A stretch of 32,000 nucleotides of DNA, taken from NCBI GenBank assembly GCA_048882505.1, contig JBHLRO010000016.1:30001-62000 (forward strand). The letters are read 5' to 3'. The stretch is from Candidatus Thorarchaeota archaeon (GTDB taxonomy: Archaea > Asgardarchaeota > Heimdallarchaeia > Hodarchaeales > Hodarchaeaceae). Under the pieces are notes generated by a model. The model was not told the origin of the DNA. It saw nothing but the letters and a program-made list of their open reading frames with translations, and searched no databases. The translations under genes were made by a program, and so were the position numbers. Below are positions 19,983-20,057 of this stretch, piece by piece. How positions within the stretch are numbered: position 1 is the first letter of the stretch; the number at the start of each line of letters is the position of its first letter.

Positions 19983-20057
19983 GTCGCTGATGATGATGTT
20001 ATCCCCGACAGAGTTGTTAAGACAACGATGAATGTGTGAAGAGCCGTCTGAAGTGAT
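19983..20057 (+). ncRNA. Double-guide box C/D sRNA targeting the 23S rRNA peptidyl-transferase centre
   Basis: Terminal stem GTCGCT/AGTGAT; C box ATGATGA 19990-19996; guide TGTTATCCCCGA; D' CAGA 20009-20012; hairpin GTTGT-TAAG-ACAAC; C' (AC)GATGA; guide ATGTGTGAAGAGCCGT; D box CTGA 20048-20051. The guides are antisense to the conserved LSU sequences CGGGGAUAACA and CGGCUC(U/A)UCAC. Confidence 0.88.

Follow-up and report, generated by a model that had tools for sequence, protein, structure and literature searches.

Archaeal box C/D RNPs carry L7Ae on both kink-turns of the guide RNA and methylate the rRNA nucleotide that is paired five positions upstream of a D-type box. Degenerate D′ and C′ boxes are common among the archaeal box C/D sRNAs. 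Dual guides directed to sites within ~100 nt of each other are the archaeal norm, and helices 90 to 93, together with the peptidyl-transferase centre, are a known hotspot for archaeal sRNA targets (PMC7994747). One such RNA, Methanopyrus kandleri MKAsR7 (Dennis et al. 2015, PMC4644070 supplementary file 1), is a dual guide that, by our count on the published sequences, has the same two targets in the same order as the RNA described below, with a D′ guide GGUAAUCCCCGG, then CCGA, directed to G2446 and a D guide CGGAGAGCCGG, then CGGA, directed to C2510 (E. coli numbering is used throughout). The alignment in that paper marks K7 twice in its 2430-2520 block (PMC4644070). Other archaeal sRNAs with the same C/D architecture aim at the same hotspot, in the central loop of domain V and helix 90: Nanoarchaeum equitans sR03 aims at G2446 and has another second guide; S. 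acidocaldarius sR7, N. equitans sR04 and M. kandleri sR45 aim at G2509 with helix 90 guides that are shifted by one nucleotide, each of them combined with a different second guide (PMC4644070). In eukaryotes the corresponding sites are served by separate snoRNAs. Yeast Gm2815 is guided by snR38 (PMC5027498), the snR38 family covers Arabidopsis Gm2805 and human Gm4362 in addition to the yeast site, and U49 covers Arabidopsis Cm2869 and human Cm4426 (PMC3511168). The same human site, Cm4456 in the newer numbering, is guided by SNORD49A/B (PMC9941101).

The literature that we searched yielded no catalogue of C/D sRNAs from Asgard archaea. Within this group, the Hodarchaeales are placed closest to eukaryotes by recent phylogenomics. 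The window analysed here is a stretch of 32,000 nt from a Hodarchaeales genome (contig JBHLRO010000016.1), and positions 19983-20057 of its plus strand hold an element that an earlier note, made from the letters alone, had described as an unannotated double-guide C/D sRNA with all four boxes, a terminal stem and an internal hairpin in canonical order. Our reading of the window and the predicted folds agree with that description. The element is closed by a 6-bp terminal stem, formed by a 5′ strand (GUCGCU, 19983-19988) and a 3′ strand (AGUGAU, 20052-20057). The C box, AUGAUGA (19990-19996), is followed by a D′ guide spacer of 12 nt, UGUUAUCCCCGA (19997-20008), which contains the core GUUAUCCCCG at 19998-20007 and leads into the D′ box, CAGA (20009-20012). 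An internal hairpin with 5 bp, GUUGU-UAAG-ACAAC (20013-20026), seen in the folds and in the ortholog alignment, would serve as stem I of the C′/D′ kink-turn and is followed by the C′ box, AUGAAUG (20028-20034). The D guide spacer, UGUGAAGAGCCGU, is 13 nt long (20035-20047), with the core GAAGAGCCG(U) at 20038-20047, and ends at the D box, CUGA (20048-20051). Both the terminal stem and the hairpin are present in the minimum-energy and the centroid folds, and the fold z-score of the whole element, -1.65, is unremarkable.

Compared with archaeal box C/D sRNAs as a class, the element has a RUGAUGA C box near its 5′ end, a CUGA D box near its 3′ end and a short closing stem; its internal D′ and C′ boxes, with a conserved hairpin of 5 bp between them, would form a second kink-turn or kink-loop; and its spacers of 12 and 13 nt fit the ~12 nt that is usual for guides. 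The proteins needed for an RNP are also encoded in this genome, which has Nop5 and fibrillarin genes side by side on contig C18 and two genes of the L7Ae family. Rfam, searched at gathering thresholds, missed the sRNA and detected only three tRNAs in the window, in line with the earlier description of the RNA as unannotated. A strict scan for C/D architecture gave six matches in the genome, one of which is this sRNA, as compared with none in the reversed genome. Further candidates from the same scan lie at C15:73806-73856 (-), C26:35674-35733 (-) and C20:54460-54521 (+), the first of which carries a guide CGCCGUCCCAGU, then CUGA.

The sRNA is present in 18 of the 21 genomes of the same genus, as judged by BLAST and by R1, a covariance model of the sRNA made in this analysis. 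We aligned 17 of the same-genus orthologs (alignment A1) and asked which columns are unchanged. These are UGAUGA of the C box, the guide core GUUAUCCCCG, GA of the D′ box, GUUG and CAAC of the hairpin, UGA of the C′ box, GAAGAGCCGU of the second guide, the whole CUGA of the D box and GUG of the 3′ stem strand. The variable positions are the flanks, the first and last nucleotides of the D′ spacer and the first three nucleotides of the D spacer. The D′ box can be written as NNGA across the genus, as its first two bases vary, and the C′ box is conserved only as RUGA with a degenerate 3′ half. Boxes, stems and guide cores are therefore kept while the flanks drift, which is the signature of a guide RNA under selection on its protein-binding boxes and antisense elements. 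The proposed helices are paired in 95% of the alignment cells, as opposed to 25-67% when the partners are slid against each other. For the terminal stem the figure is 94%, with A-U/G-U swaps and one compensatory change. Covariation in the stems is modest among the 17 orthologs, with two pairs changed on both sides.

The D′ guide core is complementary to LSU 2443-2452, which belongs to the central loop of domain V. Within this duplex of 10 bp, C20004, the fifth nucleotide upstream of D′, pairs with G2446. The D guide core GAAGAGCCG is antisense to LSU 2507-2515 in helix 90, forming 9 bp in which G20043, the fifth nucleotide upstream of D, pairs with C2510. The two target nucleotides are 64 nt apart in the peptidyl-transferase centre, and the sequences expected there are CGGGGAUAAC at 2443-2452 and CGGCUCUUC at 2507-2515. 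For the first guide, the pairing with 2443-2452 and the count from the box bear out G2446, the target that had been proposed. The second guide had been read as 11 nt antisense to 2507-2517; its predicted target, C2510, stands by the box+5 count, however, the pairing is limited to 9 bp because the archaeal LSU reads CGGCUCUUCCU, not ...CAC. The 5′ GU of this guide as first proposed is variable among the orthologs. The same proposal regarded U at 2513 as eukaryote-like, which needs correction, since the alignment in the PMC4644070 supplement gives U2513 as the ordinary archaeal base.

We assembled a composite of 4.7 kb from the native SSU, which is encoded by the contig that the window comes from, the 5′ part of the native LSU and the 3′ LSU of a genome of the same genus, G004. 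Each guide core has one match in this composite, and both matches are in domain V. The chance of a perfect complement somewhere in these 4.7 kb is P = 0.005 for a random 10-mer from the genome and P = 0.019 for a random 9-mer, which gives a joint value of ~1e-4. Given the anatomy, the conservation and the rRNA complementarity, we consider it likely that the element is a trans-acting archaeal box C/D sRNA directing 2′-O-methylation of G2446 and C2510, the two methylations themselves being predicted by the box+5 rule.

Following the established mechanism of the family, the C/D and C′/D′ kink-turns would each bind L7Ae, a Nop5 dimer would bridge the two kink-turns, and two copies of fibrillarin would be placed over the guide-rRNA duplexes. 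Pairing of the D′ guide with LSU 2443-2452 would then lead to Gm2446, and pairing of the D guide with LSU 2507-2515 to Cm2510. With both segments of domain V held at once, the RNP may also help this domain to fold. A stronger version of the last point is that the RNA forms a real C/D RNP acting as an rRNA-folding chaperone only, pairing with one or both sites and methylating neither. The bridging of two domain V segments by the two guides speaks for such a role, as does the documented pairing of human snoRD12C and U3 guides that does not methylate (PMC5027482), and a chaperone role for dual guides has been discussed (PMC7994747). We nevertheless find it unlikely that chaperoning is all that the RNA does, as the cores stand in the exact box+5 register of eukaryotic guides for experimentally methylated sites, and spacers of 12 and 13 nt fit a geometry that is competent for methylation.

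Pairing the guides with this genome's own 23S, as the earlier note had suggested, depends on which 23S is native. The bin holds two archaeal LSUs, a complete one on contig C57 and a partial one on contig C38. The C57 gene (L001:307-3242, on a contig of 6.3 kb) is intron-free, and it is the only complete 23S and the only LSU covering domain V in the bin. It pairs perfectly with guide 1, while its helix 90 reads CGUCUCUUCC, with a U at 2509, so that guide 2 forms 2+6 bp interrupted by a mismatch that adjoins the target. A U at this position is also found in Thermoproteus tenax. The two LSUs of the bin are only 64-71% identical to each other. The C38 LSU, on the other hand, shares 97.9% identity with the LSU of G016, the nearest relative, and 80-84% with the LSUs of G007 and G004, so that the C38 type is common to these three genomes of the genus. 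C38 is furthermore syntenic with a G016 contig (more than 15 kb, 87-98% identity), and each of the two contigs stops within the LSU. Together, the identity and the synteny with the genus indicate that C38 carries the native LSU and that C57 is probably foreign, most likely a contaminant brought in by binning. With C57 probably foreign, pairing with the bin's complete 23S is confounded as a test on the genome's own rRNA, and we set the C57 LSU aside for this purpose.

The native domain V is absent from the assembly, and we therefore evaluated the pairing on 23S genes of the same genus, from G004 and G007. Both carry the guide 2 target CGGCUCUUC, and on these LSUs the guides form 10 and 9 bp, in line with the minimum of 8-9 bp with rRNA or tRNA that characterizes archaeal C/D guides; each predicted target is opposite the fifth guide nucleotide before D′ or D. 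G007 has ...AACAGAG at the guide 1 site and GUCGGCUCUUCCUAUC at the guide 2 site; G004 has CGGGGGUAACA, in which a G at 2448 makes one G-U pair with guide 1, and GUCGGCUCUUCC. If the C57 23S were instead the genome's own, its U2509 would make the D guide an orphan here and leave G2446 as the only target. That no other LSU of the assembly covers domain V, and that the guide 2 mismatch is next to the target, would agree with this. We judge it highly improbable, given how far the C57 LSU has diverged from the syntenic C38 LSU, and given that guide 2 is unchanged throughout a genus whose LSUs carry its target. In sum, the outcome of the suggested pairing is mixed for C57, and it holds at both targets on the same-genus LSUs.

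The LSU genes of the genus are themselves interrupted. In this genome (G000) the loci concerned are C38:1-2100, C52:7077-7430 and C45:1799-2142, and in G000 and G016 alike the contig breaks off at model position ~2078. The G007 LSU (L053, G007:C8) carries ~320 inserted nt after ...AACGUGA; the contig runs out within the guide 1 target, at the ...AACAGAG given above. The G004 LSU (L054, G004:C44) has an insertion of ~45 nt between the two target sites. These interruptions are likely rRNA introns or expansions. If there is an intron at ~2450, guide 1 could pair only with the spliced rRNA. LSU domain V was recovered in only 3 of the 21 other genomes of the genus and in none of the four genomes of f21, a distant Asgard family considered below. 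A probably foreign 23S contig in the bin and rRNA genes in the genus that are likely interrupted by introns both bear on any comparison of guides with rRNA.

An Infernal-type search for orthologs across Asgard archaea had also been suggested, and its yield is uneven. Beyond the genus, a dual guide to the same two sites occurs in three genomes of family f21 (G280, G281 and G282). Their guides are slightly varied and are directed to the same sites, GUUACCUCCG with GAGGAGCCG and GUUAUCCUC with GAGGAGCCGG; their terminal stems differ, and their hairpins are GC-rich and of another sequence than the hairpin of the Hodarchaeales genus. The dual guide is absent from the other 119 genomes sampled in the class of f21, and R1 gave no credible match in 31 other Heimdallarchaeia genomes even when the filters were lax. 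An R1 match in G076 proved to be a different C/D sRNA, and the BLAST matches to the sRNA in other Heimdallarchaeia families are C-box-like repeats only. A C box followed by UUAUCCCC has matches in 126 of 400 Asgard genomes; with the exception of G280, those outside the genus are coding-like chance matches (48 loci inspected), and the reversed-pattern control also matched. When the exact pattern was sought in 185,579 species genomes, 17 loci matched, all in MAGs labelled Hodarchaeota, Heimdallarchaeota, Promethearchaeota or Hermodarchaeota, with Ca. Hodarchaeum mangrovi and B3_Heim among them. This patchy distribution fits an old, often-lost family or repeated invention equally well.

Individual copies depart from the common form. 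The duplicate in G017 and the copy in G280 are outliers with D′ spacers of 13 or 11 nt, which would move the predicted target by one nucleotide. G017 (L019, G017:C187, ~24789-25417) has the sRNA twice, once on each strand, with ~470 nt between the copies; the syntenic one, which adjoins trm112, has a degenerate C box, GCAUUGAUG, and the intact duplicate on the other strand is the one with the 13-nt D′ spacer. The pair looks like a snapshot of duplication and turnover of the sRNA gene. A separate observation concerns position 2448. The G004 LSU (L054:1520-1545) reads GGGGGUAAC, with a G at the normally conserved A2448, as in N. equitans, and the G281 sRNA (L154) has a C in the guide opposite position 2448. 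The G in the one and the C in the other may be guide-target covariation.

The genomic neighborhood of the sRNA is constant within the genus. In each of the 17 genus genomes examined (loci L016-L032), the sRNA is followed on its own strand, after a gap of 3-55 nt, by a trm112-like gene. In the window this gene (20061-20342, +) encodes 93 aa and matches Pfam PF03966 with E = 2.3e-10, and the 3′ stem of the sRNA ends 3 nt before its ATG. No consistent TATA-like promoter element was seen upstream of the sRNA across the orthologs, and neither ARAGORN nor Rfam at gathering thresholds found a tRNA downstream of the trm112-like gene (window 20250-20800), although a tRNA with an intron may have escaped them. 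The synteny makes it plausible that the sRNA would be transcribed as part of the trm112-like leader, either together with the gene or from a promoter just upstream. The linkage suggests a shared transcript or kink-turn-dependent control of trm112. Farther downstream, at 20750-22852 on the minus strand, is an ORF of 700 aa that matches Ribophorin_I (PF04597, E = 2.6e-11), a subunit of the eukaryote-type oligosaccharyltransferase; eukaryotic signature proteins are typical of Asgard genomes.

Taken to its limit, the linkage would mean that the element is a cis-acting kink-turn leader through which L7Ae controls translation of the trm112-like mRNA, as opposed to a guide acting in trans. Its invariable place directly upstream of the gene, here 3 nt from the ATG, is what one would expect of such a leader, and L7Ae has been reported to bind kink-turns in 5′ UTRs (PMC5539422). 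As a full account, a cis leader leaves unexplained two unchanged cores of 9-10 nt that match rRNA. In addition, the f21 orthologs lie away from trm112, showing no linkage to it, and in the genus the gap to the ATG ranges from 3 to 55 nt. We consider this explanation remote. A mere coincidence of motifs in AT-rich intergenic DNA, for which their short length is the only argument, is a negligible prospect, already refuted by the pattern of ortholog conservation and opposed as well by the helix pairing, the distribution across the genus, the rRNA-match probability and the reversed-genome scan. A trans-acting dual guide to G2446 and C2510 is the preferred reading.

How does this dual guide compare with the snoRNAs that serve the same sites in eukaryotes? 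We based the human equivalences, which the earlier note had given, on Rfam consensus guides and published tables. The D′ guide of snoR38/snR38/SNORD1 (RF00213), GUUAUCCCUGU, then CUGA, is in the same register as the D′ guide of the sRNA and corresponds to E. coli G2446, so that the equation of this nucleotide with yeast Gm2815 (PMC5027498) and human Gm4362 (PMC3511168) is upheld. For the second site, SNORD49 and Plasmodium snoR28 have the guide GGAAGUGCCGU, then CAGA or CCGA, in the same register as GAAGAGCCGU, then CUGA, in the sRNA, which likewise supports C2510 as the counterpart of human Cm4426 (U49/SNORD49; PMC9941101, PMC3511168). The architectures are different. RNAs of the snoR38 family have a single guide, are often intronic and have a longer spacer; in SNORD49 the guide lies upstream of D′ and makes a U-U mismatch, whereas in the sRNA it precedes the terminal D box. 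Among the Rfam families, all below threshold, snoR38 (RF00213) scores best on the sRNA, at 24.5 bits (E = 0.042) against a gathering threshold of 45 bits. SNORD49 (RF00277) scores 11.2 bits against a threshold of 37, and Plasmodium snoR28 (RF01604) scores 17 bits against 63. The likeness is confined to boxes and guides, and the sRNA reaches the threshold of none of the three families.

Both predicted sites coincide with methylations that are conserved across eukaryotic supergroups, in a study that found the evidence for descent of any eukaryotic snoRNA family from an archaeal sRNA to be weak (PMC3511168). An identical target leads one to expect identical guides, with or without shared ancestry, and one sRNA can therefore not settle the question of eukaryotic descent. 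One could speculate that the Asgard dual guide is a true homolog of snR38/SNORD1 and U49/SNORD49, that these arose by duplication or fission at eukaryogenesis and that, as the MKAsR7 pair would imply, the arrangement predates the Asgard lineage; we think this very improbable. The suggestion in the earlier note that one sRNA over both sites is a candidate ancestral state is not supported, given the archaeal norm of dual guides, the same pair of targets in MKAsR7 and the patchy occurrence within Asgard archaea. A statistical comparison of the full Asgard target set with that of the last eukaryotic common ancestor could address the question of archaeal descent.

The comparison with archaeal guides leads to the same place. 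MKAsR7 differs from the sRNA in belonging to another phylum, in being GC-rich with degenerate boxes, in having one internal mismatch in guide 1 and in lacking a long internal hairpin. As there is no similarity between the two beyond boxes and guides, homology and convergence look alike here. The MKAsR7 pair and the archaeal dual-guide norm make the coverage of two sites by one sRNA ordinary, and both sites were already predicted targets in archaea. The sRNA, which escapes Rfam, and its model R1 provide a well-supported Hodarchaeales case of an archaeal dual guide. The kind of RNA is well known in archaea and only the member is new; the two sites that the sRNA is predicted to address coincide with deeply conserved methylations of eukaryotic rRNA.
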